From Ferruginibacter sp. (GTDB lineage Bacteria; Bacteroidota; Bacteroidia; Chitinophagales; Chitinophagaceae), in assembly GCA_013141115.1 (NCBI GenBank), contig JABFRP010000002.1:834389-898388 (forward strand): a stretch of 64,000 bases of DNA, read 5' to 3'. The translations under genes and the position numbers were made by a program. Below are positions 46,559-61,237 of the stretch, one piece after another; position 1 is the stretch's first letter, and each line of letters opens with the position of its first letter. Under the pieces are notes generated by a model. That model saw only the letters and a list, made by a program, of their open reading frames with translations. It had not been told where the DNA came from and made no database searches.

Positions 46559-47297
46559 ACAACATTTTTAAAAAGAATTCATTTAGTAACCCCATGTCGG
46601 CATTATTTACCGCCAGGTTTTCTTTTCCGGCTTCTATGTACTCAAACAAATTCAATATCCATTCATTTAATTTTTCATCCTTTTTGTGCAAATACTTTTC
46701 GCCAACAGTTGCCTTCAATGCTATTAATGTTCTCAATCTTTCCCTGTACTCTTCTTCCACATATTTCATCAGGCCTTCTATATGCATGGGCAAAACAGTA
46801 TTGTCTTTTATTATCCAGTTGCAGGAAAGTAAAGACCGTATCAAATAGAAATAACTTTTCAACTTCAACTCTTCCTTATCTTTCAGCTCTTCCCAAAACT
46901 TTATTGCCAGGGAATAGTGATGAAAGAAAACTGCGATGGGGGAATAATAACTGCCGACCAGCATTTTAAACTCCTCCTTAAAACCCGGCACCAAAAAATA
47001 TTCTATCGGCGAATTAAACCTTTCTATCAACGGTGCATTGGATTTTTTAAGCAGGGTTAGGGATTTTCTAAGATCCCAGCCTGTTATATCCAGGTCGCCA
47101 TCCATTATCTCTACCGTATCTTTTTTTACACTCAACGATAAATACCAATCCCGTTCATGCATGTATATAAAGCGGATATCAAAATCGCTATCCGGCGAAG
47201 GAAAGCCCCAGGCCCTGCTACCCGTCTCGCAGGCATAGAGGATTTTGATGTTTTTACTTTGTTCTATTTCGGTTAGTATGTGTTTTATGTTTTGCAT
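46539..47297 (-). CDS. pol-beta superfamily nucleotidyltransferase, RlaP-like (short paralog)
   Basis: 252 aa with the motif ETGSRAWGFPSPDSDFDIRFIY. It overlaps the next gene by 20 nt. Confidence 0.75.
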   Translation of the reverse strand: MQNIKHILTEIEQSKNIKILYACETGSRAWGFPSPDSDFDIRFIYMHERDWYLSLSVKKDTVEIMDGDLDITGWDLRKSLTLLKKSNAPLIERFNSPIEYFLVPGFKEEFKMLVGSYYSPIAVFFHHYSLAIKFWEELKDKEELKLKSYFYLIRSLLSCNWIIKDNTVLPMHIEGLMKYVEEEYRERLRTLIALKATVGEKYLHKKDEKLNEWILNLFEYIEAGKENLAVNNADMGLLNEFFLKMLYAKANH

Positions 47298-47535: not shown

Positions 47536-48162
47536 TTAAGCATAAATACCATCAGCATATGATTCACTTGCGGTGAATTTATAATTATTGATTTTTTCAG
47601 AAATAGCATCTAGAAAACGTTTTAGCTTAAGCATTAATAAGGCAAAATTTCTAACATTTAATAAAGTTGGTTTTTTTGAAAGATTTCCTTTCTTATCCAA
47701 AGGGTATCTATAAGCCATTGAAAAGCTATCGCCATCTGAGAGCTGCTTAATTATGATTGCTGCATCAGTAAAACTCTTTTTTAAAATATTTTTTGAGTCC
47801 TTTTTTGAATATAGTTTTATGAATTCAACCCAAAGATTTTTTAAGTCGTGATTTGTAGGGAAATTTGTATTCTGATTTAAACAATAATTTAAACTCCATA
47901 TAAACTCCTTCAATTTTAGTTCAATGCTATGCCTATATAAATATATAATAGGATAGACCAATAAATCTTTAGCCCTTTCTTCTTTAATATATGACATAAC
48001 TAATAATTCCGCAGCATCGAAATAACCCAAGTTGTAAACTGCAAATCTATGAGATTCTTCATAATCCAAGATTGCATTATTCCTCATATCACTACAGTCA
48101 CTCCTAAATAATTTATCGCCTTTTTCTAATAAAGGTGATTTCCAAATAAATTTCCTTGCCAT
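47536..48162 (-). CDS. hypothetical protein in the AT-rich cassette
   Basis: 208 aa ORF. Local composition is clearly more AT-rich than the neighbouring genes. No family assigned. Confidence 0.5.
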   Translation of the reverse strand: MARKFIWKSPLLEKGDKLFRSDCSDMRNNAILDYEESHRFAVYNLGYFDAAELLVMSYIKEERAKDLLVYPIIYLYRHSIELKLKEFIWSLNYCLNQNTNFPTNHDLKNLWVEFIKLYSKKDSKNILKKSFTDAAIIIKQLSDGDSFSMAYRYPLDKKGNLSKKPTLLNVRNFALLMLKLKRFLDAISEKINNYKFTASESYADGIYA

Positions 48163-48192
48163 ATTTATAATTAAGTATTTTTAACCTCTTTT

Positions 48193-49042
48193 CTATAAAT
48201 CGCTGAACATATCTTTCAAATATTCAAAGGGTTTCATTTTACTTTTTTTAATTGAATCTAATCCTTTAGTTATTGCTTCGTAAAAATTATTTGTTTGAAA
48301 ATCAATTTTAAGTTGCTCAATCTGCTTCTGCGATTCTTCTTCTTTTTTAGATAACTCTCGTAAAAAAAATATGCCTGCATTTCTAACTTTTTCAAGTCTG
48401 ATAACAACTTCCCGAAATTCTTTCTCTGAAATTTGAATTGGGTTTTTTAATTCATCATTATAATCGCAATAAAAGCCTCTTTGTCTGAATAAATCTACCT
48501 TAGAAAACCAATTTAATTCTCTTCTAAGAATTATTATCTTTCTTAAAAAAGTAAAATTTATACTTGTCCAAAATAAAATTTTTATCATCTCTCATTCCCT
48601 TAATTAGGTTATTCACATGTTCGGGATTATCATTCATTTTTTTAATTATTTTCTTTAATTCATCGCCTGCCAAAGAAATTATAAATATGAAATACGCAAT
48701 TACATACCTTATCTCATGATTCCTGAAGAAAGAGTCAATCCCTTTCGATTTTCTAAAATCAAATCCATTGCCATCTAAAAAAACTATAATTGCTTTTATA
48801 AGTTCTTCAATACTTATGATTGAAGCTGAAATACCCAAGCCAAAATCTCCGTTTTTGGCAAGAACCATTCCTGACTCCCAGCGTCTATCGGAGTTTTCTA
48901 AAATATCATTGTAAACAATTAAGCATTCTTTTCTTGAAATGTTTAAAAATGTTTTACCCTCCATACTTGTTGCTTTAAATTTGTCTAATAAAATTAATTT
49001 AATCACCTGATTCCCCTTTATTAAATATCTATCTATATGCAA
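48193..49042 (-). pseudogene. AbiV/HEPN-like gene apparently split by a frameshift (ORFs 48524..49042 and 48193..48588)
   Basis: The two ORFs overlap by 65 nt. The junction contains the homopolymers TTTTTT and AAAAA. The upstream part has a GLGISASIISIEELIKA helix and the downstream part has SKVDLFRQRGFYCDY, resembling AbiV-type proteins as I recall them. Confidence 0.4.
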
Positions 49043-49245: not shown

Positions 49246-50349
49246 CTATTTCTGCACCACAAATATCTGTTTCAACTGTTCTATCAATGAACCATTACCA
49301 CTTACGCTGATCTCACCAATTTTGTCGGCAATTTTTTCAACGTATTCCATCTCTTTCAATTTCCACAACATGGTATTGTCTTCCATTAATTTGGCAGTGT
49401 TTAACAAACTACGGGTGCTGGCGGTTTCTTCACGCCGCATGATGCTGTTGGCCTGTGCATTTTTTTCTGCCACCAACACTTTGTTCATGATGTCTTTTAC
49501 ATCGCCTGGCAAAATGATATCCCGGATACCGAAACCATTTACTGCAACACCTAAATCTTCGGCAGTATTTTTTATTGCTTCCAAAATAAATGGCACAATG
49601 GTATCTTTTTTCTCCAGCAATTCGTCAAAGCCCAAACCACCAATGTACTCCCGCAATGCCAACTGAAAAGCCACATACAACTGCCGTTCGTAATCTTTGT
49701 TTTGCAACAACGCTTTTTCAATATCGGCCACTTTGTACTGGGCATAACCGTTGATACGCAATGCAGCTTTGTCTTTGGTCAAAATTTCCTGACCGTTGAT
49801 TTCTATTTGCTGCATACGGGTATCGGCTTTACCCACTACAATGGTGATGCTGTTTTTCCACCAGTAGTAAATACCGGCTGGCAATATTTGTGCATACTTT
49901 CCATCAATGAACAAGATGGCTTGCTCATAGTTTTCTACAGTGTAGCTACGCACATAAGGCGCTACCAATTTGTTTTGCAATACGGCACGGCTGATGTTTT
50001 CAGTAATGTCTATTTTGCTGATATCTGCTTTAATAAATTCGTAGTTGTTGACTACGTTTTTCCAAAAAGCATAACGGCCTGCAGTTAATACCTGCTTTAA
50101 CAAACCATCCTGGTACTGCAACACTATTTCATTATCACTTACTTCAATTACCTGCAAGGCGTTGGCTAATGCAGTATCCTGCAATAAAATGTTTAATTCT
50201 GTAGCGGCATAAAATGGTTTGGTTACATCATGTATCATCACGGTTTCATTAAACCACAACCAATAGTTCCCTTCAGTCAACATTTTTTTGTACTCGCCAT
50301 TTTTAAATACCAATGCTATTTGGTAGGCGTTGATTTTTACTTGTTTCAT
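49246..50349 (-). CDS. SPFH/Band-7 (slipin family) protein without a TM anchor
   Basis: 367 aa with a C-terminal SPFH core (GIRDIILPGDVKDIMNKVLVAEKNAQAN). The N-terminus has three repeats of G.Y...L..G.Y..W.N. Confidence 0.85.
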   Translation of the reverse strand: MKQVKINAYQIALVFKNGEYKKMLTEGNYWLWFNETVMIHDVTKPFYAATELNILLQDTALANALQVIEVSDNEIVLQYQDGLLKQVLTAGRYAFWKNVVNNYEFIKADISKIDITENISRAVLQNKLVAPYVRSYTVENYEQAILFIDGKYAQILPAGIYYWWKNSITIVVGKADTRMQQIEINGQEILTKDKAALRINGYAQYKVADIEKALLQNKDYERQLYVAFQLALREYIGGLGFDELLEKKDTIVPFILEAIKNTAEDLGVAVNGFGIRDIILPGDVKDIMNKVLVAEKNAQANSIMRREETASTRSLLNTAKLMEDNTMLWKLKEMEYVEKIADKIGEISVSGNGSLIEQLKQIFVVQK

Positions 50350-50648
50350 TTTGTTTGTTATTATGCCCGCTGATTTCGCAGATGGCGCTGATTAAATTTT
50401 GTTTTAAATAAAGTTGAAATTGGTTGCCATTCTGTAATCACGGAAATGCTTGGTTAACAGATTCTGGCTGACAGTTGTTTTACTATTATTTACCAAAATA
50501 ATTTTAGTAACGTTTAAATAAACCAAGTGTCATTTGTTACCTGCTAATTTTGTCATTTGCAAAGCGTTTACTGAATTTGCTTTGCTGTAAAAGTTGCAAC
50601 AACTTTACAAACAGCGGGCAACGCAATTTCAACTTTAATGGATCACCA

Positions 50649-50720
50649 TTTTTTAAGAAGCGGTGTACTTCTTTACGCTACATTAACGGTGTAGTGCTCT
50701 ACCAATTGAGCTATCCGAGC
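50649..50720 (-). ncRNA. tRNA-like element A (Asn-GTT-like 5' two-thirds, aberrant 3' part)
   Basis: The minus strand reads GCTCGGA-TA-GCTCAATTGGTAGAGC-A-CTACA-CCGTTAA-TGTAG, then AGAAG-TACACCG-CTTCT. No 3' strand complementary to GCTCGGA is present. Confidence 0.5.
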
Positions 50721-50786
50721 TGGATTTCGGAAAGGGATTCGAACCCTAACAATTGTTGTTGCTCTAACCAACTGAGCTATCCTGTT
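50721..50786 (-). ncRNA. tRNA-like element B (D arm, T arm and encoded T-CCA tail, mini anticodon arm)
   Basis: The minus strand reads AACAGGA-TA-GCTCAGTTGGTTAGAGC-(AACAA-CAA-TTGTT)-AGGG-TTCGAAT-CCCT-TCCGAAA-T-CCA. The 5' and 3' acceptor strands pair at only 3 of 7 positions. Confidence 0.5.
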
Positions 50787-50787
50787 T

Positions 50788-50812
50788 TACCAGGAGAAGG
50801 ACTTGAACCTTC
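50788..50812 (-). ncRNA. tRNA-like element C (isolated T arm plus 3' acceptor strand)
   Basis: GAAGG-TTCAAGT-CCTTC-TCCTGGT-A on the minus strand. I could not fold a D or anticodon arm upstream of it. Confidence 0.35.
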
Positions 50813-51005
50813 GACACACAACGTGATGGCTGGCGTACCTTACAGCAACAATAGCATACAGATAGTTACTACGTCTGCACTGTTGTGTTTTAAAACACTA
50901 ACCTGGTTTGCTTTCTGAAGGTGTATACCAGTCTTGCTGTTAAGCAAGCTTTTGAATTGAATTTTTACTTCAACAATATTTTAAAGAACTTCTTGTTTTA
51001 CTTTG

Positions 51006-51272: not shown

Positions 51273-52013
51273 TTATTTCCCCGGGCAATTCAATGTTTCA
51301 TAAACCTCATTTATTTCTGTTACAAATGCCCCGGTATAACTTTGTATTACCAATAAATCCTCTATGCTTGATTTAAATTTTAAAATGGTCGTTTTATCAT
51401 TTAGCCACTCATTTAAAAATTCTATACCACCATCAGCAAAAGGATTATCAATACTCAAATTCCCTTTCCTTGTCACCTTAACTCCAGACGCTATCGTTTG
51501 AACAAAATGCATTAAAGCACTGAATTCTTTTACTTCTTCCCACATTTCAGTTGTCCAGCTAATATCAAAGCCTGTTTTTGAAAGCATAATAATTACAGCT
51601 TCAAGGTCTTCAAAATCAGCAGCAGGATATTTTGTCAAGCATTTTTTAAAGAATGATTTCATATACTGCTCCAGAAAATCCGTTTCGTCTGTTGACCATT
51701 CTCCCGATCTTAAATATGCCATTCTGCTTAAAGCTATTTCTACAGAATGTGCTGGAAAATTGAATTCACTGATAAGTTCCAATAAACGTGGCAGAAAATA
51801 TTTGTACTCCACCGCTTCAATTTCTTCCGACATAGCTGAAGTATTATAGACACTCAGCAAGTCTAAAGGAATTTTTTCAACCGGTATACTCAATAGCAAT
51901 TCCTGTTCTTCTTCACTCACACAACATGGGCATACATCAAGTTTACCATTAAGTTTGTAGCGGGCAAACAGGTTGTAACCTTTTTGTATGATCTCCTTCA
52001 TTTCCTTTTCCAT
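51273..52013 (-). CDS. hypothetical protein (246 aa from M33)
   Basis: ORF 51273..52109. The ATG at 52013 is preferred because upstream of it lies the shared divergent promoter element. No family recognised. Confidence 0.55.
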   Translation of the reverse strand: MEKEMKEIIQKGYNLFARYKLNGKLDVCPCCVSEEEQELLLSIPVEKIPLDLLSVYNTSAMSEEIEAVEYKYFLPRLLELISEFNFPAHSVEIALSRMAYLRSGEWSTDETDFLEQYMKSFFKKCLTKYPAADFEDLEAVIIMLSKTGFDISWTTEMWEEVKEFSALMHFVQTIASGVKVTRKGNLSIDNPFADGGIEFLNEWLNDKTTILKFKSSIEDLLVIQSYTGAFVTEINEVYETLNCPGK

Positions 52014-52067
52014 AACACAAATCCCAATCCCTTGTGTGCAATCTATTTGCACAGTAAAAATTATTTT
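52012..52067. promoter_or_regulatory. 56-bp duplicated promoter/operator-like element, copy 2 (divergent region of the WYL gene)
   Basis: Palindrome tgtgcaa-N5-ttgcaca at 52035-52053. On the plus strand, TTTG inside the palindrome followed after 21 nt by TATTTTTA resembles a Bacteroidota -33/-7 promoter ahead of the ATG at 52093. Confidence 0.55.
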
Positions 52068-52092
52068 CACTATTTTTAAAAAAAAATTCAAA

Positions 52093-53106
52093 ATGCCTGT
52101 AAACCGCAATGCCCTAATCCGCTACCGCACTATCGACAAATGCCTGCAAAACCGCCGCCGCAAATGGACCATCGAAGACCTGATAGATGCCTGCAATGAT
52201 GCTTTGTACGAGTACGAAGGCGTGCATACCAATATCAGCATGCGTACCATCCGGCTGGATCTGAATGCCATGCGTAGTGATTCTCTCGGCTACAATGCCC
52301 CCATCATAGTAAACAACAAAAAATTTTATACTTATGAAGATGCGGAGTATTCCATTGCTAACAGTCCGCTTACTACACAAGATCTGGGCATATTGCAGGA
52401 AGTATCGCACCTACTGCGCCAGTTTAAAGGTTTCAGCCACTTTAACGAAGTGAGCGAAATGGTAAATAAACTGGAAGACAAAATTTACAGCGAACAACAC
52501 CAGCAGGCATCCGTAATTGATTTTGAAAAAAACGACTTGCTCACCGGCATTGAATGGCTGGATATTTTATACAAGGCCATTGTAAATAAAACCACCTTGC
52601 TCATCACTTACCAATCTTTTAAAGCACGCCAGGCGGCCGATATTATTTTTTATCCCTACCTGCTTAAAGAATACCGCAACCGCTGGTTTATCCTGGGTAT
52701 GAAAAAGCAGGGCAAAGAAATCATCACTTTTGCATTAGACCGTATTCAAAATATTACAGCACAGGACAAAGAACTTTTTGTGCAGCACAAAAAATTTGAG
52801 CCGCATACTTACTTCGATAATATTATTGGCGTTACCCGTAACTATGCCGAAGAGCCGACCACCATTTTATTTTGGGCCAGTGCACATCATGCACCTTATA
52901 TAAAAACTAAACCCATACATGCATCACAAAAAATAGTAGAAGAAGTAAAAGGCGGTACGCATTTCAGCATTGCCGTTATCCCCAATTTTGAAATGGAAAG
53001 AGAACTGATCGGCTTTGGTGAAGGCATTAAAATTTTATCGCCTAATAATATTGTGCGGCAGATAAAACGGAAAGTGCGTTTGATAAGCGAGCTGTACCAG
53101 GAATAA
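52093..53106 (+). CDS. WYL-domain transcriptional regulator (HTH-WYL-WCX type)
   Basis: The N-terminus MPVNRNALIRYRTIDKCLQN is typical of this family. A central WYL-like segment is YPYLLKEYRNRWFILG. Confidence 0.8.
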   Translation: MPVNRNALIRYRTIDKCLQNRRRKWTIEDLIDACNDALYEYEGVHTNISMRTIRLDLNAMRSDSLGYNAPIIVNNKKFYTYEDAEYSIANSPLTTQDLGILQEVSHLLRQFKGFSHFNEVSEMVNKLEDKIYSEQHQQASVIDFEKNDLLTGIEWLDILYKAIVNKTTLLITYQSFKARQAADIIFYPYLLKEYRNRWFILGMKKQGKEIITFALDRIQNITAQDKELFVQHKKFEPHTYFDNIIGVTRNYAEEPTTILFWASAHHAPYIKTKPIHASQKIVEEVKGGTHFSIAVIPNFEMERELIGFGEGIKILSPNNIVRQIKRKVRLISELYQE

Positions 53107-53148: not shown

Positions 53149-54231
53149 TTAATTCATCGTCACTTCCTGCCGTCTAAACCCAAACACTTCCGTTCTTTCA
53201 ATTACATTATCTTTTTCATCGGGGTTGGCAATTTCTGCTATGGTCATAGGCTTTGTAATGCTATTGCTAAAACCTAAGTGATCCGATAAGCGTTGCGATT
53301 TTGTTGTACTCAACTTTCCAAATTCATATTTTGCAATTAACCTGCCTTTACGCATCAGTGCACTATCTACCAGTGTAAGCGAATTATTAAAAGTGCAGAT
53401 CAGTTGTACATTTAAAAAATCGGCCAGCAACCCATCGGAAATGTTCAATAAATTAGATACCGATGCATTGCCATTTAATTTTCTATCCATAATTATATTT
53501 TCTGCATCTTCAATGATCAGCACACTGTTGGGATTGCTCACCAGCAACTCAATAAAATCGGGGCTGGTAATATCCGCTGCTACATTGGGAGACACAAACA
53601 ACACCCGCTTTTTAATTTTACCAATAAGGTAACGCAGGTAAGTGGTTTTGCCTGTGCCGGGTAAACCGTGCAGTAATACAATGCCTTTGTCTTTATCTTT
53701 TGTAAGCCGCTTGCAAATGGTATCACTCACTGCTTTAAAATCATCTTCATAAAAAAGATCCAGGCTAAGCTTAGTACGTTTTACTTCCAGTTGCTTTAAC
53801 TCCAGCCCGTTTCGGCCACGGCTGATGAGGTTTATCTCTAACGGCTTTCTGCGCTGCTTCTCTTTAAACTGTTTCATCAGGTTAGTACAGTCGTTTATAA
53901 AATCTTCCTGCATCCCGCTGTGATATATTTCGCAGTAATTGGTATCAAACTCTATTACACATCCGTTTTTCATGATCATAAATGTTTCATCAAAAACGTA
54001 GCGTTTTTTCTTACTGTCGTAATAGCGGTAACCATGCTGCGACTCTATCAAATGCCCAAACTTGTCTTTGATAGCAGCAAATGCTTTTTCCCCATCAATA
54101 TTGTTGATATAGTTAGCACTGGGTATTTGCCCAAAGCAATACAGGTATAATGATTTGCCACTTAAAAATCCATTATCAAAAATGCTGTTGGCATTGATCA
54201 TTTTTTGATTGGTAGTATTTTCCATTTTCAT
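53149..54231 (-). CDS. AAA+ ATPase (classic AAA clade) with an N-terminal domain of unknown function
   Basis: 360 aa with Walker A GLPGTGKT and Walker B LIIEDAEN. Confidence 0.8.
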   Translation of the reverse strand: MKMENTTNQKMINANSIFDNGFLSGKSLYLYCFGQIPSANYINNIDGEKAFAAIKDKFGHLIESQHGYRYYDSKKKRYVFDETFMIMKNGCVIEFDTNYCEIYHSGMQEDFINDCTNLMKQFKEKQRRKPLEINLISRGRNGLELKQLEVKRTKLSLDLFYEDDFKAVSDTICKRLTKDKDKGIVLLHGLPGTGKTTYLRYLIGKIKKRVLFVSPNVAADITSPDFIELLVSNPNSVLIIEDAENIIMDRKLNGNASVSNLLNISDGLLADFLNVQLICTFNNSLTLVDSALMRKGRLIAKYEFGKLSTTKSQRLSDHLGFSNSITKPMTIAEIANPDEKDNVIERTEVFGFRRQEVTMN

Positions 54232-54358: not shown

Positions 54359-54844
54359 CTAATGCACAATTTTATTAGCGCAACTGCTGCTTGCAAAAGC
54401 ATCCGGCTTGGCTTTAAAAGCAAAGCCCATCCCCATGATATATCCCATGGCTTCTTTCAAAGCATCATTACTTTTAAAATTAGGATTGGTATTAATATCC
54501 ACATGCACTTCCATATCCACACTGTAGCGGCTAAAAATATTGCACAGCGTATACGCTACTTCAACACTCTTCGCTACTTCCACTAACATCCGTTGTTTGA
54601 TACTCATTTTTTGCAAAGTAGTTTCGTTGCAGATATACATAAACCCTCCTTTACCCTTACGTATAAAAACAATTACGGTAGCAAATTCAGTTTCCTTTCC
54701 TTTTACCTGGCTATCGGTACCAATACACACTTTCAGTTCATGGCCCATTGCTCTTTCTCTTTCAATAGTTACCTTTACTTCATCCTCAATAGGAATGCGT
54801 ATTTTTTCACCGTTTAATTTTCTCCATTGCTGTTGCTGTTCCAT
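54359..54844 (-). CDS. YkuK/DUF458 family RNase H-like protein
   Basis: 161 aa with the motif CIGTDSQVKGKETEFATVIVFIRKGKGGF, matching the IGTDSQ...TAIV..R.GKG pattern I recall for YkuK. Confidence 0.7.
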   Translation of the reverse strand: MEQQQQWRKLNGEKIRIPIEDEVKVTIERERAMGHELKVCIGTDSQVKGKETEFATVIVFIRKGKGGFMYICNETTLQKMSIKQRMLVEVAKSVEVAYTLCNIFSRYSVDMEVHVDINTNPNFKSNDALKEAMGYIMGMGFAFKAKPDAFASSSCANKIVH

Positions 54845-54973: not shown

Positions 54974-55720
54974 TCATCTTTTCCCAGCCTTTATTGAATC
55001 AAGTATTTGAATCAATGATTTGTTTTTAAATTCATTTGCTTCATTATACTTTTCAAACTCTTTATAATACCTGTGCTTGTAATGCCCATGCACCAACCGG
55101 GATTGCTTTTTCCGTAAATCTTTTCGCTCCAGGTAATTGTCCAATAATTTCATCTTCGATTCCAGCTCGGCATCTTTTATCCTTACCTTATCAATCATAT
55201 TGGGCTTTATTTTTAACACATATCTCCAAACTTCAATAAACTCATACCGCTTAATGGGTTGTTTTTTCCAATCCAATTCCCACACTTCTCTAAAAAATTG
55301 TTTTTCAGATTCGTTGAAATCCATTTTTAAAGATTGGTATTCGTAAGGCCTTAAAAGATGTTGTGGTTTTACAACATAAATTTTTCGCCCCCGTTTCCGC
55401 TTCTTTCTTTTAAAGTCTTTTTTCCAGTGGTACTCGTAAGTATTTATTTTTTTTAAAATCGTTTCAAAAAAAATCCCATGCCTGCTCCTTGCCACATCCT
55501 CCCTTACTACAAAAAACCTAACCCATCCTTTTTGTATCGGCGGATGCAATGGCTCCCACCCCAAATTTCTTTGTTGCAGATACAATGCATTTTCTTCTTT
55601 ATGCAATTGTATCAGTTGCTTATCAAAATCTTTATACCGCAGTCTTTTCTTTTGCCTTGCAGTACGTAAACGGTAACAGAGCATATCTTCTCCGTACTGT
55701 TGAATAAGTTTTGTGTCCAT
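54974..55720 (-). CDS. highly basic hypothetical protein
   Basis: 248 aa, K/R/W/Y-rich (KKDFKRKKRKRGRK). It is the first CDS downstream of the tRNA array on the same strand. Confidence 0.55.
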   Translation of the reverse strand: MDTKLIQQYGEDMLCYRLRTARQKKRLRYKDFDKQLIQLHKEENALYLQQRNLGWEPLHPPIQKGWVRFFVVREDVARSRHGIFFETILKKINTYEYHWKKDFKRKKRKRGRKIYVVKPQHLLRPYEYQSLKMDFNESEKQFFREVWELDWKKQPIKRYEFIEVWRYVLKIKPNMIDKVRIKDAELESKMKLLDNYLERKDLRKKQSRLVHGHYKHRYYKEFEKYNEANEFKNKSLIQILDSIKAGKR

Positions 55721-55843
55721 AATGTTTTATTTTGTTTCGATCGAAAACTCCTGTGCCATTGCAGCAGGTGTGTTATTTGTTTCATTATGAACCGTGTTAC
55801 TTTTTTCATTACTTCTTTTTTAAGTTGTATAAATTTATTTTTG

Positions 55844-55914
55844 CATCAATACAAGGATTCGAACCCTGACAGATAGTGTTGGAAGCTATCATGCTACCTT
55901 TACATCATACTGAT
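55844..55914 (-). tRNA. tRNA-Trp(CCA)
   Basis: Manual fold: acceptor ATCAGTA/TATTGAT, T arm CAGGG-TTCGAAT-CCTTG, anticodon arm ATAGC-TTCCAAC-ACTAT with one C-A mismatch. Confidence 0.7.
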
Positions 55915-55925
55915 AATTTTTATTG

Positions 55926-55996
55926 CGGACGAAGCAAGACTCGAACTTGCACTACCAGCTCTTCAAACAGGCACTCTACCGTTGAGTTATTCGTCC
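55926..55996 (-). tRNA. tRNA-Phe(GAA)
   Basis: Acceptor GGACGAA/TTCGTCC, T arm GCAAG-TTCGAGT-CTTGC, anticodon loop TTGAAGA. The anticodon stem has one U-U mismatch. Confidence 0.75.
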
Positions 55997-55999
55997 AGT

Positions 56000-56067
56000 T
56001 TGTTTGCAACAGGCTTGTTGATTGATCTATATTTCCTCATCGTCGAATTCACCTGTTATCAAACAAT
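56000..56067. repeat. hairpin spacer element 1 inside the tRNA array
   Basis: The arms tgtttgcaacagg (56001-56013) and cctgttatcaaaca (56052-56066) pair. It shares its terminal sequence with the element at 56569. Confidence 0.5.
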
Positions 56068-56077
56068 TTCTTTATTG

Positions 56078-56151
56078 AGTCCTGCAGAGGACTCGAACCT
56101 CCTTCTTTCGATTTGCAGTCGAATGCATACGACCATGTCTGCCAGCAGGAC
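56078..56151 (-). tRNA. tRNA-Cys(GCA)
   Basis: Acceptor GTCCTGC/GCAGGAC, T arm GGAGG-TTCGAGT-CCTCT, anticodon arm TTCGA-CTGCAAA-TCGAA. Confidence 0.8.
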
Positions 56152-56156
56152 ATTTG

Positions 56157-56240
56157 CGGAGAGTAAAGGATTCGAACCTTTGCACCGAATAAACGATGAT
56201 GGCTTAGCGGGCCACTACAATACCACTCTGTCAACTCTCC
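56157..56240 (-). tRNA. tRNA-Ser(GCT), type II, with C at position 33
   Basis: Acceptor GGAGAGT/ACTCTCC, T arm AAAGG-TTCGAAT-CCTTT, a long variable arm, and anticodon arm GTGGC-CCGCTAA-GCCAT. Confidence 0.7.
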
Positions 56241-56252
56241 TAAATATTTTTG

Positions 56253-56340
56253 CGGAGAGAAAGAGATTCGAACTCTTGATCCGCCAAATGGCGGACAGTA
56301 TGTTTTCAAGACAGCATCCATGACCATCCGGACTCTCTCC
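56253..56340 (-). tRNA. tRNA-Ser(TGA), type II, with a weak anticodon stem
   Basis: Acceptor GGAGAGA/TCTCTCC, T arm AAGAG-TTCGAAT-CTCTT, variable arm CCGCC-ATTT-GGCGG, and loop CTTGAAA closed by only 3 Watson-Crick pairs. Confidence 0.65.
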
Positions 56341-56345
56341 AATTG

Positions 56346-56485
56346 TGTGAGTGGATGGATTACTCACTTCACATTTATTTAATTTTTGTGTTCATGTATT
56401 CCGCTTCGCTCCATTTCGAACCATCTAAGTCTTTTGAACAGCAGATTTACAGTCTGCTACGAATCGCCGTCTTCGTCGCACTCAC
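56346..56485 (-). tRNA. tRNA-Tyr(GTA)-like gene with a 55-nt insertion in the T-loop (possibly a pseudogene)
   Basis: Acceptor GTGAGTG/CACTCAC, D arm ACGA-N10-TCGT, anticodon arm GCAGA-CTGTAAA-TCTGC. The T stem GATGG (56421-56425) pairs with CCATC (56354-56358) and encloses TTCGAA plus 55 nt (56360-56414) plus T. Confidence 0.5.
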
Positions 56486-56492
56486 ATTTTTG

Positions 56493-56564
56493 AGGATGAA
56501 AAAAGATTCGAACTTTTAACCCTCCCGCTAACAACGGGACGCTCTGCCATTGAGCTATTCATCG
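56493..56564 (-). tRNA. tRNA-Asn(GTT)
   Basis: Acceptor CGATGAA/TTCATCC (C1 x C72 mismatch), T arm AAAAG-TTCGAAT-CTTTT, anticodon arm TCCCG-TTGTTAG-CGGGA. Confidence 0.75.
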
Positions 56565-56568
56565 ATTA

Positions 56569-56671
56569 TTTGTTTGACCAGGGATTTTTAAAGATTGATG
56601 GGATTAAAAAAATTATAGCATCCATAATCTTTTTAATCATTTTCATCCACCCAAATCCCAGTTCAAACAAA
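56569..56671. repeat. 103-nt hairpin spacer element 2 inside the tRNA array
   Basis: The arms tttgtttgaccagggattt and aaatcccagttcaaacaaa pair at 17 of 19 positions. There is further inner pairing (gattaaaaa/tttttaatc). Confidence 0.55.
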
Positions 56672-56674
56672 CTG

Positions 56675-56748
56675 TAGTTCCGGTGAGACTCGAACTCACA
56701 ACCACCGAATTAAAAGTTCGGTGCATCTAACCATTGAGCTACGAAACT
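56675..56748 (-). tRNA. tRNA-Lys(TTT)
   Basis: Acceptor AGTTTCG/CGGAACT, T arm GTGAG-TTCGAGT-CTCAC, anticodon arm CCGAA-CTTTTAA-TTCGG. The D stem is weakened by an extra T. Confidence 0.75.
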
Positions 56749-56755
56749 ATTTTTG

Positions 56756-56828
56756 TGATGACTAAAGGACTCGAACCTTTAACCACTACCGTATCAGGAT
56801 AGCACTCTGCCAATTGAGTTAAGTCATC
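56756..56828 (-). tRNA. tRNA-Ile(GAT)
   Basis: Acceptor GATGACT/AGTCATC, T arm AAAGG-TTCGAGT-CCTTT, anticodon arm CTATC-CTGATAC-GGTAG. Confidence 0.8.
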
Positions 56829-56832
56829 TTTG

Positions 56833-56904
56833 TTGCGACCGCAAGATTCGAACTTGCATCTTCTGGCTTATGAGACCAGTATGTTACCATTACACCAAGT
56901 CACA
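56833..56904 (-). tRNA. tRNA-Met(CAT) (elongator Met or lysidine-dependent Ile2, undecided)
   Basis: Acceptor TGTGACT/GGTCGCA (2 G-U pairs), T arm GCAAG-TTCGAAT-CTTGC, anticodon arm CTGGT-CTCATAA-GCCAG. It lacks the initiator GGG/CCC stem. Confidence 0.75.
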
Positions 56905-56918
56905 ATTTTATTTTTTTG

Positions 56919-56991
56919 TTGACTTAATTGGATTCGAACCAATAACCTTTTGCGTATAAGGCAACTGCTCTCACCGTTAAGCTATAAGTCA
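56919..56991 (-). tRNA. tRNA-Ile(TAT)
   Basis: Acceptor TGACTTA/TAAGTCA, T arm ATTGG-TTCGAAT-CCAAT, anticodon loop CTTATAC. Confidence 0.7.
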
Positions 56992-56997
56992 ATTTAG

Positions 56998-57070
56998 TTG
57001 GTCTAACAAGATTCGAACTTGTATCCCCACGTTCGTAGCGTAGTATTCTCATCCGTTGAACTATAGACCA
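56998..57070 (-). tRNA. tRNA-Arg(ACG)
   Basis: Acceptor TGGTCTA/TAGACCA, T arm ACAAG-TTCGAAT-CTTGT, anticodon arm CTACG-CTACGAA-CGTGG. Confidence 0.8.
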
Positions 57071-57074
57071 ATTT

Positions 57075-57168
57075 GTGCGGCTTCCGGATTTGAACCGGAT
57101 ACGACCCTCTTATGTTTACCTCTTAGAAAAAGAGGAAGACGATCATGTTACCATTACACTCAACCGCA
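57075..57168 (-). tRNA. atypical 94-nt tRNA-like gene (anticodon assignment ambiguous; the best hairpin gives TTC)
   Basis: Acceptor TGCGGTT/AGCCGCA, D arm GTGT-AATGGTA-ACAT, T arm TCCGG-TTCAAAT-CCGGA. The 44-nt central region holds the hairpin CCTCT-TTTTCTA-AGAGG plus a second AAGAGG copy. Confidence 0.45.
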
Positions 57169-57170
57169 TT

Positions 57171-57243
57171 GGTTGACTTCGGGTCTCGAACCCTGTTCCC
57201 CACATTCACAGTGTGGTACTTTACCAGTTAAGCTAAAGCCAAC
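57171..57243 (-). tRNA. tRNA-His(GTG)
   Basis: Acceptor GTTGGCT/AGTCAAC, anticodon arm CCACA-CTGTGAA-TGTGG. The T arm CAGGG-TTCGAGA-CCCGA is imperfect. Confidence 0.7.
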
Positions 57244-57253
57244 ATTTAATAAG

Positions 57254-57325
57254 TGCAGCATGAGTGATTCGAACACTCTCCTCCGATTTGGAAGACCGGC
57301 ACGCCGCCATCAACGCATATACTGC
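57254..57325 (-). tRNA. tRNA-Gly(TCC)
   Basis: Acceptor GCAGTAT/ATGCTGC, T arm GAGTG-TTCGAAT-CACTC, anticodon arm CCGGT-CTTCCAA-ATCGG. Confidence 0.8.
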
Positions 57326-57335
57326 AATTTTTTTG

Positions 57336-57406
57336 TTATCGAGGATAGATTCGAACTATCAACTTCAGAGTCAAATTCTGAAATGTTGCCATTACACCAC
57401 TCGATA
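57336..57406 (-). tRNA. tRNA-Gln(TTG)
   Basis: Acceptor TATCGAG/CTCGATA, T arm GATAG-TTCGAAT-CTATC, anticodon arm TCAGA-ATTTGAC-TCTGA. Confidence 0.8.
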
Positions 57407-57416
57407 ATTTTTTTTG

Positions 57417-57488
57417 CGGTTCGTATGAGAATCGAACTCATAGCTTCTGATAGACAATCAGAAATGTTAGCCGTTACACTAACGAACC
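57417..57488 (-). tRNA. tRNA-Asp(GTC) with U at position 37
   Basis: Acceptor GGTTCGT/ACGAACC, T arm ATGAG-TTCGATT-CTCAT, anticodon arm TCTGA-TTGTCTA-TCAGA. Confidence 0.75.
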
Positions 57489-57543
57489 GTTATAGTGGAG
57501 TACTGACTGAAGCAATACTGCACACTATGTTTCAAAGGGCTTG

Positions 57544-57616
57544 CAGTCTGTACCGGATTCGAACCGGTATTGTCAAGTAGAAAGCTTGATATCCTGAACC
57601 ATTAGATCAACAGACC
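57544..57616 (-). tRNA. tRNA-Glu(TTC) with U at position 37
   Basis: Acceptor GGTCTGT/ACAGACT, T arm ACCGG-TTCGAAT-CCGGT, anticodon arm TCAAG-CTTTCTA-CTTGA. Confidence 0.75.
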
Positions 57617-57622
57617 ATTTTG

Positions 57623-57695
57623 TATAGTAGGCAAGATTCGAACTTGCAGCCTCTCCGGTCCAGGCGGAGTATCCAACCAATTGGAATGCTACTAT
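57623..57695 (-). tRNA. tRNA-Pro(TGG) with C at position 33
   Basis: Acceptor ATAGTAG/CTACTAT, T arm GCAAG-TTCGAAT-CTTGC, anticodon arm CTCCG-CCTGGAC-CGGAG. Confidence 0.7.
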
Positions 57696-57720
57696 GTTTA
57701 AAAAATAATCAAAGAACTTT

Positions 57721-57757
57721 TTAAAAAGCTTCCCCGTTGCATCTCACGGGGAAAGCT
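57721..57757 (-). terminator. rho-independent terminator just upstream of the tRNA array
   Basis: agcttccccg-N10-cggggaaagct, with a T-run on the minus strand. Confidence 0.6.
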
Positions 57758-57779
57758 TTATTCCTCCTTCTGCATCTGA

Positions 57780-57860
57780 TTATTTTATACGCCTTTTTAT
57801 CTTATTGAAAATGGCTTCTGCAAATGCCTGCATCAACCATACTACTATTAAAAATGTCAT
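57780..57860 (-). CDS. possible 26-aa hydrophobic/basic micro-protein
   Basis: Own translation: MTFLIVVWLMQAFAEAIFNKIKRRIK. It is followed by the terminator at 57721-57757. No homology evidence. Confidence 0.25.
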   Translation of the reverse strand: MTFLIVVWLMQAFAEAIFNKIKRRIK

Positions 57861-58614: not shown

Positions 58615-59280
58615 TTATTGCAAGGGCATATACAAATGTTCCCGTATGGCATAAACGATAATGCCGGCAGTATTTTTTACGTTCATTTTTTCAATAATTT
58701 TTAAACGCAGGCCTTCTACCGTTCTTACACTTAAAAATATTTTTTCGCCAATTTCTTTACTGGTTAATCCTTCGCAGATGTAGTGTATAATTTCTTTTTC
58801 CCGCTCATTAAAATCTGCTTTCTGCGTTTTCAGTTGCAGGTTAAACCTGCTTTTAGCTACCATACCCGCCAGTTTTTTTGAAGTAAGACGGCAGTAGTGC
58901 GACTCGTTATCAGCAACAGTATGCACTGCTTCAATTATTTCAGTTTTGTCGGCATTTTTTAACAGATAGCCTTTGGCTCCTGCCTCAAGCATATCAATAA
59001 TAAGATCTTCTTCATCAAACATAGTTAATGCAATAATACCAATAGAAGGATAATACATCGTAAGGTGTTTGGTAGCAGTAACACCATCAAGATTGGGCAT
59101 TTTTACATCCGTTATCACCACATCAGGTAAATGTTGCTTTACCAGCTCTATCAATTCTTTTCCATCGCCTGCCTCGCCTGCAACAATAATATCAGGCTGC
59201 TTTTGTAACATCAGTTTTAAACCATCTCTAAAAATTTCATGGTCGTCGGCAATAATAACCTTAATGGTCTTTATACTCAT
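58615..59280 (-). CDS. LuxR/NarL-family response regulator
   Basis: 221 aa with a receiver domain (IIADDH, DVVITDVKMP) and a C-terminal LuxR HTH (REKEIIHYICEGLTSKEIGEKIFLSVRTVE). Confidence 0.9.
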   Translation of the reverse strand: MSIKTIKVIIADDHEIFRDGLKLMLQKQPDIIVAGEAGDGKELIELVKQHLPDVVITDVKMPNLDGVTATKHLTMYYPSIGIIALTMFDEEDLIIDMLEAGAKGYLLKNADKTEIIEAVHTVADNESHYCRLTSKKLAGMVAKSRFNLQLKTQKADFNEREKEIIHYICEGLTSKEIGEKIFLSVRTVEGLRLKIIEKMNVKNTAGIIVYAIREHLYMPLQ

Positions 59281-59288
59281 GGTAGTTA

Positions 59289-60035
59289 TTAAACAGGAAT
59301 GTCAAAAATATAAGTTACTCCTTTACCGGGTTGAGAGTTGCAGATCAGTTCGCCACCCATCACTTCGGTGCGGCTCTGTAAGTTACGCAACCCAAGGCCT
59401 TTAAGTTCTTTTGATTTTGAAAAATAATCGAACCCTTTTCCGTTATCTGCAGTGGCCAGTAAAATACGATTATCGTCCTTACGCAAACTGATCAGTAATA
59501 AATTGGCGCCGGAATGTTTGATGGTATTATGCAACACTTCCTGCACAATACGGTACAAATTAATTTCTTTATTCTGATCAAGCCGTATCTCCTGATCGCA
59601 GTTAAACTTAATTTCCAGCCTGCTGGCTTTTTTATATGTTTCGGCCAATTCTTCAATACCGCTTTTTAAGCCTTTACGCAACAAAGTATTGGGCATAAGA
59701 TTGTTGGAGATTTCACGCAGCTTTTGAATAATACTATCGATATGCTGGCTCGATTTTACCACCAGTTGCTGGTCTTGCTCACCCACCGTTTCAATATTAT
59801 TAATTTGCAATTTTACAGCAGATAATAAAGGCCCCAATTCATCATGCAGGTCCGATGCAATTCTTCTTCTTTCATTTTCCAACGTATCAATTTCTGCCTG
59901 TATTTTATCCTTATGCATACGGATGCTTTTGCGGTGATAGCGTATAGCTGTTATAATAAAATATAACAGAATAGTGCCCACTACCGCAGCAACGATTAAA
60001 ATAGCCCTGTAAAATTCTTCTTCCTGGGTATGCAT
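59289..60035 (-). CDS. histidine kinase core (HisKA_3 plus HATPase_c)
   Basis: H-box RIASDLHDELGPLL and the ATPase G-boxes ADNGKGF and GLGLRNL. Confidence 0.85.
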   Translation of the reverse strand: MHTQEEEFYRAILIVAAVVGTILLYFIITAIRYHRKSIRMHKDKIQAEIDTLENERRRIASDLHDELGPLLSAVKLQINNIETVGEQDQQLVVKSSQHIDSIIQKLREISNNLMPNTLLRKGLKSGIEELAETYKKASRLEIKFNCDQEIRLDQNKEINLYRIVQEVLHNTIKHSGANLLLISLRKDDNRILLATADNGKGFDYFSKSKELKGLGLRNLQSRTEVMGGELICNSQPGKGVTYIFDIPV

Positions 60036-60661
60036 AAAGCGCCTATTGCAAACATCAAATTAACGATAAGATTTGAATAATTGATCACTTCCTGCAAGCC
60101 CCGCCTTAATTGCCTGCTTGTATCTATACCAAACAGTGAAAGGCTGGCGGTTCTGCTTAAAAGATAAAAAGAGAAGAAAATAATTATGCCCAGTATGATC
60201 CAGAATTTAGGATTTTTAAACAAGGGCGCCCTGTCCTGTATCACCACTTTATTAAAGGTTGTTACGGCAAAAAACAGCAATGCCGTGGCATATATAACCC
60301 TAAAATACATATTGGGTTTGGTAAACCCTTCCGGGTAAAAACTAAATACCAACCACATCAGAAAAGCAATCAGGTTAATAAAGATAAAAAGCCGCCGGTT
60401 AAAATTAAACAGCCCCCATAAGTGAAAAAGCCAGGTATAAAAAACAAACTCAATGAAACAGAAAACATTAATCATCACCGTCTTTTCATCATACATTTCT
60501 TTTTCTATAAGTACATAACTGATAATTTCAACTAGTAAAGAAATGCAGGCCAGGTAAAAAAAGGGGTAGTAAGACCGGTCGATCCTTTTAAACTTTACTA
60601 TCCCAATGATTACTGTAAAGCCAATGCAAAGGCTAAGTATAAACTGTACTTCGTTTGTCAT
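59996..60661 (-). CDS. polytopic membrane domain protein (probable sensor module of the kinase)
   Basis: 221 aa, about 7 TM. Its end overlaps the kinase ORF start by 40 nt. Confidence 0.6.
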   Translation of the reverse strand: MTNEVQFILSLCIGFTVIIGIVKFKRIDRSYYPFFYLACISLLVEIISYVLIEKEMYDEKTVMINVFCFIEFVFYTWLFHLWGLFNFNRRLFIFINLIAFLMWLVFSFYPEGFTKPNMYFRVIYATALLFFAVTTFNKVVIQDRAPLFKNPKFWIILGIIIFFSFYLLSRTASLSLFGIDTSRQLRRGLQEVINYSNLIVNLMFAIGALCIPRKKNFTGLF

Positions 60662-60685
60662 ATATCAGGTACGAAGTTGAATGGT

Positions 60686-61237
60686 TTAATAGTTGATGCA
60701 GGGAGGATCGCATTGCCCCTGCTCAATTCCTCCTGTGCTATCACCCGGCAGTTCGCTTGCCATTTTGGCTGCCTGCACCGGAGCTCCGGAATCTTTTTTT
60801 ACTGCCGCTTTGTTTTCTGTACCTGCAAAATGCTGATCATCTTTCAGGTATAAATTATTACCCCGGCTATCCACCCCTACCAATATTAAACGCACACTGT
60901 TACTATCGCCGCTTTGTTTTATACCATACAATATTTTAATACCCACACAATCCGGTATTTGTAAAATTTCAATAATGGCTTTTTTATTAAATGCTTCGCT
61001 AAAAGGAATTGAAGTGGTGGGCCGTAATTTTAATAACGAATCTCTTTCCCTGGCAAAAGCAGCCTGGTACTCTCTGATTTGCTCAAGCGGAATAAAGTGA
61101 TCAATTTTTCCCAATGCCGAAGTATCTTTTGGTACAGGAATAAATTCACCTTCCCTGTTTTGTTTACAGGACACTGTATAAAGTATGACGGGCAGCAGCA
61201 GCAATACCGCAGTCATTATTTTTTTAAACCGTTGCAT
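60686..61237 (-). CDS. lipoprotein, unknown function
   Basis: 183 aa with a signal peptide and lipobox YTVSC. Confidence 0.55.
   Translation of the reverse strand: MQRFKKIMTAVLLLLPVILYTVSCKQNREGEFIPVPKDTSALGKIDHFIPLEQIREYQAAFARERDSLLKLRPTTSIPFSEAFNKKAIIEILQIPDCVGIKILYGIKQSGDSNSVRLILVGVDSRGNNLYLKDDQHFAGTENKAAVKKDSGAPVQAAKMASELPGDSTGGIEQGQCDPPCINY

Follow-up and report, generated by a model that had tools for sequence, protein, structure and literature searches.

The stretch analyzed here, called the window throughout, comprises 64,000 nucleotides (nt) from Ferruginibacter sp. (Bacteroidota, Chitinophagaceae; GenBank assembly GCA_013141115.1, contig JABFRP010000002.1, positions 834,389 to 898,388 of the forward strand) and contains a dense tRNA gene array on the minus strand at 55843–57695. 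About 19 tRNA-like genes are packed into 1.85 kb, with gaps of 2–152 nt, and several of them have anticodon loops that break otherwise near-invariant rules. In order of transcription, 5′ to 3′, they are Pro-UGG, Glu-UUC, Asp-GUC, Gln-UUG, Gly-UCC, His-GUG, a 94-nt tRNA-like element, Arg-ACG, Ile-UAU, Met-CAU, Ile-GAU, Lys-UUU, Asn-GUU, Tyr-GUA (interrupted), Ser-UGA, Ser-GCU, Cys-GCA, Phe-GAA, and Trp-CCA. Only two other tRNA genes lie in the window, Gln-CUG and Arg-CCG, both of which stand alone.

Position 33 is near-invariantly U in tRNAs. A purine at position 37 has been termed strictly conserved (PMC7812866). A preliminary description of this DNA had named six elements as violating one rule or the other; four of them are real tRNAs with exactly the loops described, and the remaining two (an “atypical gene” and an “element A”) are not tRNAs and are treated separately below. 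In the list of these four tRNAs, R1 denotes a covariance model that we built for this purpose from 102 array tRNAs.

57623–57695, minus strand: tRNA-Pro(UGG), loop CCUGGAC, with C32, C33, and A37 (the usual base being G37); 48.6 bits with Rfam, 54.8 bits with R1
57544–57616, minus strand: tRNA-Glu(UUC), loop CUUUCUA, with U37; found by ARAGORN, Rfam, and R1
57417–57488, minus strand: tRNA-Asp(GUC), loop UUGUCUA, with U37 and A38; found by ARAGORN, Rfam, and R1
56157–56240, minus strand: tRNA-Ser(GCU), type II, 5-bp anticodon stem GUGGC/GCCAU, loop CCGCUAA, with C32 and C33; found by ARAGORN

All four have a canonical cloverleaf (7-bp acceptor stem, D arm, 5-bp anticodon stem, 7-nt loop, T arm with a loop of the GTTCRANYC type), which the 94-nt element and element A lack, and the deviant tRNAs score 54–68 bits with R1. 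Every other array tRNA of the window that has a standard 7-nt anticodon loop carries U33. The stand-alone Gln-CUG (loop UUCUGAU) and Arg-CCG (UUCCGAA) are canonical, as the preliminary description had said of the chromosomal-type tRNAs.

The array was assembled from several gene-calling methods. Default ARAGORN called 15 of the genes and missed Pro-UGG, Ser-UGA, Tyr-GUA, and the 94-nt element. Pro-UGG was added by a permissive Rfam scan (its loop was read with relaxed ARAGORN and R1), Ser-UGA by relaxed ARAGORN, the 94-nt element (57075–57168) by R1, and the interrupted Tyr-GUA by homology to a related array. Because R1 misaligns tRNAs with long variable arms, the loops of Ser, Tyr, and Leu tRNAs were read with ARAGORN; because default ARAGORN under-detects C33 tRNAs (five Pro genes surfaced only at relaxed thresholds), the loop census was done with R1. 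None of the tRNAs, in the array or among the chromosomal ones, has an encoded CCA end, which is thus uninformative as a marker of foreign origin. The two added genes with long variable arms are as follows (related loci are referred to by numbers such as L001).

56253–56340, minus strand: tRNA-Ser(UGA), type II, loop CUUGAAA, weak anticodon stem
56346–56487 (coordinates approximate), minus strand: tRNA-Tyr(GUA), loop CUGUAAA, with an insertion of about 55 nt in the T loop, based on alignment to L001 9273–9360 and a minimum-free-energy fold

The register of the deviant loops is fixed by covariation. In alignments of 14–15 orthologs each for Asp, Pro, and Glu, the share of alignment cells that are paired is 97.1, 95.2, and 97.3%, respectively, over the whole structure, and 92–100% in the anticodon stem. 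Double compensatory changes were found in 12 pairs for Asp, 9 for Pro, and 15 for Glu, including all five anticodon-stem pairs in Asp and Glu and four of five in Pro, and none of 500 shuffles reached the observed covariation in any of the three. Sliding the 3′ partners by one to three columns lowers pairing to 21–49%. Since the anticodon stems covary, no alternative register is available: the covariance-model folding that the preliminary description had called for gives the same loops and no fold that restores U33 or a purine at 37, and we rejected both alternative registers and pseudogene decay on this evidence. C33 in Ser-GCU and Pro-UGG and U37 in Asp and Glu are therefore genuine, and they occur in structurally intact tRNAs under purifying selection.

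To place the window array among its relatives, we used as an anchor the 248-amino-acid (248-aa) protein encoded downstream of the array, chosen because it is independent of tRNA loops. Searches with this protein gave 80 loci from a genome collection and 50 more from metagenomes. In nearly all Chitinophagaceae loci a tRNA array lies immediately upstream of the anchor, and the array and the RNA-repair gene cluster that follows it are present together in about 27 Chitinophagaceae genomes, as well as on metagenomic contigs.

Across the 27 genome arrays, R1 aligned 249 type-I tRNAs, in which position 33 is U in 240, C in 8, and A in 1, and position 37 is A in 198, G in 37, U in 10, and C in 4. Every C33 in this set belongs to Pro-UGG, and all 14 pyrimidines at position 37 fall in Asp (seven U), Glu (three U, one C), and His (three C). 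This confinement of C33 and pyrimidine-37 to a few isoacceptors makes the pattern more than chance. Lys (22/22), Gln (20/20), Asn (17/17), Met (14/14), and Trp (13/13) are canonical throughout; Ile, Gly, and Cys are likewise invariably so, and position 37 of Arg-ACG is only A or G. Among the type II tRNAs, C32-C33 is found in Ser-GCU of the window, L001, and L012; ten other arrays have U33 there (UUGCUAA in eight, CUGCUAA in L002, AUGCUAA in L023). C32 accompanies C33 in 10 of the 11 genome cases.

The metagenomic arrays replicate these observations: Asp has G37 in five cases and U37 in one, Pro has C33 in three of six, and Glu has U, A, or G at position 37. They also add C33 in the Phe-GAA genes of three loci and G37 in two Gln genes. 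When genome and metagenome arrays are combined, position 37 of Asp-GUC is U in 8, G in 13, and A in none of 21 arrays; Pro-UGG has C33 in 11 of 20; and position 37 of Glu-UUC is U in five, G in six, A in six, and C in one, while that of His takes A, C, and G. The bacterial norm is 1-methylguanosine (m1G) at position 37 of tRNA-Pro and an N6-isopentenyladenosine (i6A)-type A37 in tRNA-Phe; the array tRNAs show the opposite, with A37 in 19 of 20 Pro-UGG and G37 in 29 of 38 Phe-GAA. With A37 so prevalent, array Pro-UGG is not a TrmD-type G36-G37 substrate. The first base pair of the array tRNA-Pro is A1-U72. Each orthologous family has a strictly conserved anticodon, and together the tRNAs represent most amino acids, each a single time.

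The loop deviations are thus isoacceptor-specific and recur across the family. The preliminary description had proposed random decay as what would undo its claim; comparison of the orthologous arrays speaks against decay, because the same isoacceptors deviate time and again and compensatory changes preserve their stems, in arrays with a flanking protein of only about 50% identity.

How often positions 33 and 37 changed was estimated by Fitch parsimony on a neighbor-joining tree of the anchor protein, which requires at least five changes for Asp37, six for Glu37, four for His37, three for Ser33, and two for Pro33. For Pro, the root of the tree is reconstructed as C33, a long-lived state given that the position changes only twice, and U37 of Asp is kept in lineages whose anticodon stems have been wholly rewritten by compensatory change. 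All Asp37 changes are U/G transversions, with at least four switches between the two bases, and the mutationally easy step from G to A is absent in the 21 arrays. Canonical A37 is thus avoided in Asp, which argues against pure drift. The same is argued by L011, in which, relative to its relatives, CC has become UU at positions 32–33 in both Pro and Ser-GCU. The Asp and Ser genes of the window and L012 are near-identical even though the anchor proteins are only 54% identical, which would allow for some exchange between arrays. Diversifying selection at position 37 was considered and rejected, as the change count of this column is not above that of unconstrained columns.

Downstream of the array, the window encodes a series of genes whose recurrence we counted by searching the window proteins against the 80 anchor loci with tblastn. 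In order from the array, these are:

54974–55720, minus strand: the 248-aa anchor protein, no recognizable fold, directly downstream of the array
54359–54844, minus strand: RNaseH-like protein (PF04308), following the anchor in 24 loci
53149–54231, minus strand: AAA ATPase, 21 loci
51988–53106, plus strand: WYL-WCX transcription regulator, divergent, 10 loci
50640–50900, minus strand: composite YrlA-like non-coding RNA (described below)
49246–50349, minus strand: SPFH/Band-7 (slipin-type) protein, 20 loci
48524–49042, minus strand: AbiV-type HEPN protein, which with two small unknown open reading frames fills the stretch 47536–49042 between SPFH and RlaP
45494–47297, minus strand: two RlaP nucleotidyltransferases (PF10127), 10 loci
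between the RlaP pair and RtcB: 3′–5′ exoribonuclease
42248–43696, minus strand: RtcB RNA ligase, 68 of 80 loci

Most of these genes recur across the 80 loci, and the array is therefore the head of a conserved RtcB RNA-repair cluster. The adjacency to RtcB that the preliminary description had pointed to is not an accident of this genome: the anchor protein co-occurs with RtcB in 68 of the 80 Bacteroidota loci, and in Chitinophagaceae it directly follows the tRNA array. RlaP extends damaged RNA by one or two nucleotides at the 3′ end and has been tested on tRNA-Asp cut in the anticodon loop (PMC12776372). The anchor protein has no relatives in Pfam, NCBIfam, PADLOC, or PDB sequences; its AlphaFold model (predicted local distance difference test, pLDDT, 77; predicted template modeling score, pTM, 0.48) has a best Foldseek match in PDB at an E-value of 0.8, and hence no credible structural relative there. 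No Ro60/Rsr/TROVE, RtcA, or RtcR genes were found in the window.

A phage or plasmid origin of the array was rejected: the array is chromosomal with family-wide synteny, a blastn search against phages returned generic single-tRNA matches only, one against plasmids returned none, and a degenerate pattern for the Pro gene had no match in viral contigs. The cluster contains no HNH endonuclease or integrase, and no mobile-element genes flank the array.

Upstream of the first tRNA gene lies a conserved leader, in which a terminator scan picked out a hairpin.

57720–57795, minus strand: leader consisting of AGAUGCAGAAGGAGGAAUAAAGC, then a 12-bp terminator-like hairpin (57729–57754) and a U-run

The leader is near-identical in L001, L012, L007, L021, and L002, where it is placed just upstream of Pro despite different upstream genes, and it matches no Rfam family. 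The hairpin loop repeats the motif AGAUGCA, and a possible competing segment precedes the hairpin, as GGAGGAA might pair with its 5′ arm. These features suggest a possible attenuator that would work by conditional read-through; given a conserved leader that contains a terminator, expression of the array is probably conditional. Directly upstream and in the same orientation, 58615–61237 on the minus strand holds genes for a response regulator of the LuxR type and a HisKA_3 kinase, along with two unknown genes. The same genes also precede the array in L001, L013, L016, L018, L019, and L028 (Ferruginibacter, Niastella) and may be a second regulatory input.

Two tRNA-like RNAs belong to the same cluster, and they account for the two elements of the preliminary description that we do not accept as tRNAs.

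57075–57168, minus strand: 94-nt tRNA-like RNA, 37 bits with R1; structure from alifold on seven syntenic copies (the others at L001 8462–8554, L003 8403–8496, L008 7772–7865, L011 6544–6637, L015 8768–8861, and L017 9688–9781)
50640–50900, minus strand: composite YrlA-like non-coding RNA, 37 bits with Rfam YrlA (E-value 2.6e-6) and 29.6 bits with the tRNA model; includes element A (50655–50714)

The 94-nt RNA has normal acceptor, D, and T arms and an extended anticodon arm, formed by an outer helix of 6 bp, an 8-nt bulge on the 3′ side, and an inner hairpin of 6 bp whose 5-nt loop is U-rich. Compensatory changes in 11 pairs support this fold across the seven copies, and at least seven arrays have the RNA in the same syntenic place, flanked by His and by Arg or Leu. 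The letters UUUUCUA, in which the preliminary description had read a U37, are indeed present, but reading them as an anticodon loop requires opening the closing pair of the inner hairpin; because the conserved fold is an extended arm with a 5-nt inner loop, “position 37” is undefined in this RNA. A short protein-spliced intron was also considered and rejected, as inspection revealed no bulge-helix-bulge motif and no deletion restores a normal loop.

The YrlA-like match is below the Rfam gathering score of 69 and covers only positions 23–86 of the 114 in the model (RF02553). The RNA, of about 250 nt, is made of three modules, namely a T-arm hairpin, a D arm with mini-stem and T arm, and a D arm with an anticodon-like hairpin, and at least 14 related loci have it inside their RtcB clusters, with the RNaseH-like/AAA genes on one side and SPFH on the other (relatives include L018 10880–11100, L012 13770–13990, and L006 11470–11700). 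Element A is the last of these modules. Its sequence CCGUUAA does occur in a 5-bp hairpin, as described; the module is nevertheless part of a YrlA-like RNA and not a tRNA. The “anticodon” of this 7-nt loop differs in almost every genome, and U33 is kept in nearly all. Because the closest relative, L012, has CUGUUAA, the C33 of the window is a private substitution.

Among known systems, the closest counterpart is the long tRNA array (L-array), a class reported in several phyla including Bacteroidetes (PMC8421152). The window array has the defining properties of a long, dense, same-strand set of supernumerary tRNA genes in a phylum in which tRNA genes are mostly dispersed. Horizontal spread, another L-array trait, is not what is seen here, as the array is syntenic beside the same genes in the roughly 27 Chitinophagaceae genomes. 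In Anabaena, the L-array is expressed only once translation is impaired, under joint regulation with rtcB, 23 of its 26 tRNAs are aminoacylated in vivo, and the tRNAs have been proposed to serve as back-ups or as nuclease sponges (PMC8421152). The Anabaena TrcR regulon includes RtcB, a slipin-family protein, and an AAA ATPase (PMC10272220).

The trn operon of Anabaena PCC 7120 resembles the window array in being a dense, single-strand, non-periodic array of supernumerary tRNAs with about one gene per isoacceptor, and in having RtcB, slipin/SPFH, and AAA ATPase as functional partners. Like several Chitinophagaceae arrays, it includes Leu tRNAs with short variable arms. The R1 scan found CUGUCGA (G37-A38) in its Asp and, in its Phe, UUGAAGA, identical to the loop of the window. 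Because they are common to Anabaena, the non-A37 states of Asp and Phe are probably an old feature of this class of arrays. Several differences stand beside these similarities. The Anabaena partners form a dispersed regulon, whereas those in Chitinophagaceae are physically in one cluster; the Anabaena array is plasmid-borne beside an HNH homing endonuclease, whereas the Ferruginibacter array is chromosomal and family-syntenic; and the Anabaena regulator is the ribbon-helix-helix repressor TrcR, in contrast to the probable regulators here, a WYL protein and a terminator-type leader. The Anabaena array has 26 genes, compared with 19 here, and contains neither C33 nor U37, and these two states are apparently derived within Chitinophagaceae. 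There is no detectable DNA similarity between the Anabaena and window arrays, whose gene orders were not formally compared.

Phage tRNAs provide a second point of comparison. Loop changes that let tRNAs of mycobacteriophages and enterophages escape VapC and other nucleases have been put forward as a computational hypothesis (PMC10264068). Experimentally, T5 tRNA-Lys escapes the AriB nuclease of PARIS through a swapped base pair in the anticodon stem (PMC11464382), and T5 tRNA-Tyr likewise escapes Retron-Eco7 (PMC11555353). The preliminary description had mentioned a T5 study of loop substitutions and a PrrC-like nuclease; this was inexact, since the T5 experiments concern AriB and Retron-Eco7, and neither PrrC nor loop positions 33 and 37. 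The array tRNAs resemble these escape tRNAs as extra copies that deviate in the anticodon stem-loop in a setting of biological conflict, with the deviation judged here against the general bacterial norm rather than against host copies, and T4 likewise pairs tRNA damage with a repair ligase (PMC10264068). They differ in being bacterial chromosomal genes that have no match in phage or viral collections, and in that the T5 escape is a stem swap and not a change at 33 or 37.

Two further systems share single features with the window. The Salmonella rsr-yrlA-rtcBA operon (PMC4201824; PMC7790460) also joins RtcB to a tRNA-like non-coding RNA, and the window RNA matches the tRNA-like core of YrlA (T arm, short stem, D arm); unlike YrlA, it is sub-threshold, longer, equipped with extra modules including the hairpin with the variable “anticodon”, and joined to a full tRNA array without Rsr, RtcA, or RtcR. 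Mobile tRNA array units from an Acidithiobacillus integrative conjugative element, Mycobacterium, and plasmids similarly consist of redundant tRNA genes at high density outside the core set, but by definition have at least 20 genes, compared with about 19 in the window, whose array is syntenic with an RNA-repair cluster (PMC4758250). We found no paper that describes this Bacteroidota cluster or its loop variants. What is new is an L-array-type operon joined to a repair cluster with RtcB and a Y-RNA-like RNA, with conserved violations of the U33 and purine-37 rules.

By gene content and position, the array is a putative auxiliary tRNA operon of the L-array kind, built into the head of a cluster with RtcB, the YrlA-like RNA, SPFH, and RlaP. 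Our preferred reading, to which we assign a probability of about 0.4, is that it is a stress-type operon of back-up tRNAs whose altered loops change recognition by loop-directed enzymes. Damage to the housekeeping tRNAs, for example cleavage of the anticodon loop by ribotoxins that leaves RtcB-joinable ends, would switch the cluster on; RtcB and RlaP would repair what they can, and the array would supply a replacement pool. The altered bases at 32/33 and 37/38 would set these replacements apart at the very positions where loop-directed enzymes read or cut, whether those enzymes are nucleases or modification enzymes whose products the nucleases need. The cost in decoding would probably be tolerable, as C is the mildest replacement for U33, and in Asp, Glu, and His position 36 forms a strong G/C pair while A37 normally bears no more than a minor methyl group. 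The reading draws on the intact structure and isoacceptor specificity of the deviant tRNAs, on the absence of A37 from Asp, on A37 in Pro and G37 in Phe, on the stable C33 of Pro and its joint switch with Ser in L011, on the conserved repair context with its counterpart in the Anabaena stress regulon, and on the leader, together with the precedent of phage tRNAs that escape nucleases through changes in the anticodon stem-loop.

Several points weigh against it. The array tRNAs that anticodon nucleases classically attack (Lys-UUU, Asn-GUU, Arg-ACG) show neither deviation, having retained U33 and purine-37. A matching nuclease was looked for without success in the cluster, where PADLOC matches only the WYL regulator, and the AbiV-type protein, which is the only HEPN gene, is specific to the window, as it and the two small open reading frames beside it occur in none of the 80 related loci. 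The counts for Asp37 (five changes) and Glu37 (six) are not above those of variable-loop columns (five to seven) or position 26, and because they match the least constrained columns, position 37 of these two tRNAs appears roughly unconstrained. The arrays also show turnover of the kind expected under weak selection, with genes that come and go, D and T loops that carry inserts, one switched anticodon, and some truncated copies. Finally, the difference from the host copy is judged on the general bacterial norm for Asp, Glu, Pro, and Ser-GCU, and the back-up role, charging, and nuclease resistance of the array tRNAs are predictions from sequence.

The close rival is that the deviations are tolerated, near-neutral variation in auxiliary tRNAs under weaker selection, falling where tRNAs tolerate change best (C in place of U33, and any base at 37 when position 36 is G or C and position 37 bears no bulky modification) and bringing no benefit; we regard it as possible, if tentative. 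It would explain why Asp37 and Glu37 change as often as the variable-loop columns of the same tRNAs, why Glu37 takes all four bases and His37 three, and why pyrimidine-37 is limited to Asp, Glu, and His, members of a class that in E. coli has only 2-methyladenosine (m2A) at position 37. It also accommodates the gain and loss of genes and such oddities as palindromic D/T-loop insertions, a D-arm deletion, an Asp-body tRNA with anticodon GUA, and the Tyr gene with its 55-nt insertion. However, drift should readily have turned G into A at Asp37, and A37 appears neither in the 21 arrays nor in Anabaena despite at least four U/G switches; Gln (20/20) and Gly (8/8) keep A37 in the genome arrays despite equally strong pairs at 36 (two metagenomic Gln have G37), and Arg-ACG allows only A or G. 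Nor would drift be expected to hold C33 of Pro stable over deep divergence, to change Pro and Ser together in L011, or to leave about 200 other array tRNAs strictly obeying both rules, which shows that selection is not generally lax. It is very improbable that the C33 seen in the genes is instead corrected after transcription, by C-to-U editing or a compensating modification, so that the mature tRNAs are canonical and the deviation in the DNA would mean nothing for function. Editing of C to U in tRNAs exists in other lineages, and the C32 that accompanies C33 in nearly all genome cases is a context that a deaminase could read; the cluster, though, encodes no tRNA-specific cytidine deaminase, editing at position 33 is to our knowledge not known in bacteria, and correction would leave U37, G37, and C37 unexplained.

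That the genes are decaying or mis-registered is effectively refuted. Such a view could appeal to the four members that ARAGORN misses and to the low scores of some others, but it conflicts with stems that covary around an unchanged 7-nt loop (95–97% paired, against 21–49% in slid registers), with the R1 scores of the deviant tRNAs, and with the persistence of the same states beside a flanking protein of about 50% identity. Also unlikely is a role outside translation, with the tRNAs acting as sponges for toxin RNases, binding to a regulator or damage sensor, or serving the YrlA-like RNA and the repair machinery as substrates or partners. The authors of the L-array study proposed a sponge role and saw cleavage of operonic tRNAs (PMC8421152), the cluster holds other non-decoding tRNA mimics in its YrlA-like and 94-nt RNAs, and there are odd identity features such as A1-U72 in Pro and the short-arm Leu tRNAs of relatives. 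Against this, the in vivo aminoacylation of most Anabaena array tRNAs (PMC8421152) points to translation, the strictly conserved anticodons make up what resembles a decoding set, and a decoy should mimic the loop of the target rather than differ where enzymes read.

A bolder form of the back-up reading, which we consider rather doubtful, is that the cluster is a damage-inducible, “ribotoxin-proof” translation kit on the chromosome, joining a back-up tRNA operon to RtcB, RlaP, and a Y-RNA-like tRNA mimic. Particular tRNAs (Pro and Ser with C32-C33, Asp with U37 or G37 but not A37) would have given up U33 or purine-37 because loop-directed nucleases, or the modifications on which these depend, recognize those bases, and the states would toggle between lineages with the local toxin repertoire. 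If this were true, bacterial elongator tRNAs, natural and conserved, would for the first time be shown to decode with C33 or U37, and the array would be a cellular counterpart of phage tRNA escape. If, as the preferred back-up reading has it, the loop variants are insensitive to nucleases, bacteria would be using for themselves an escape trick of the phage type.

The observations matter beyond this choice. Two textbook near-invariants are broken, family-wide, in intact and maintained bacterial tRNAs of named isoacceptors, which constitute a natural test set for the contribution of positions 33 and 37 to decoding and for whether nucleases and modification enzymes read the anticodon loop. What one cyanobacterium has as a regulon (L-array, RtcB, slipin, AAA ATPase) is here a physical cluster in another phylum, which strengthens the link between long arrays and the response to RNA damage and adds to that response a Y-RNA-like mimic without Ro, the 94-nt RNA with its extended arm, the orphan anchor protein, and the leader. 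With natural C33 and U37 tRNAs in a compact cluster, the idea of nuclease-proof back-ups becomes directly testable in bacteria.

The related arrays contain several unusual tRNA genes. In L005, 9173–9244 has an Asp-type body with anticodon GUA (loop UUGUAGA), an apparent switch of anticodon from Asp to Tyr. In several genomes, array tRNAs that are intact in other respects have short G+C-rich palindromes, for example GCCTGCCGGACAGGCAGG, inserted in the D or T loop; these could be miniature mobile elements or intron-like inserts:

D loop of Arg: L008 7871–7964 and L003 8503–8592
T loop of Asp: L014 8375–8466
T loop of Phe: L003 9652–9745 and L023 13966–14065
D loop of His: L002 3622–3706
Asn: L019 7849–7931

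The tRNAs with Leu anticodons (UAA, UAG, CAG, CAA) are 73–75 nt long with short variable arms, unlike normal bacterial tRNA-Leu:

Chitinophagaceae: L001 8560–8633, L002 3808–3880, L005 9250–9322, and L006 8667–8739
Anabaena (L082): 1555–1628, 1851–1924, and 2016–2090

The rest of the window encodes TonB-dependent receptors and has a G+C content of 35–40%. Two cobalamin riboswitches on the minus strand, at 17877–18073 (100.7 bits) and 20394–20581 (114.7 bits), lie upstream of genes of the TonB-receptor type and are unrelated to the array.

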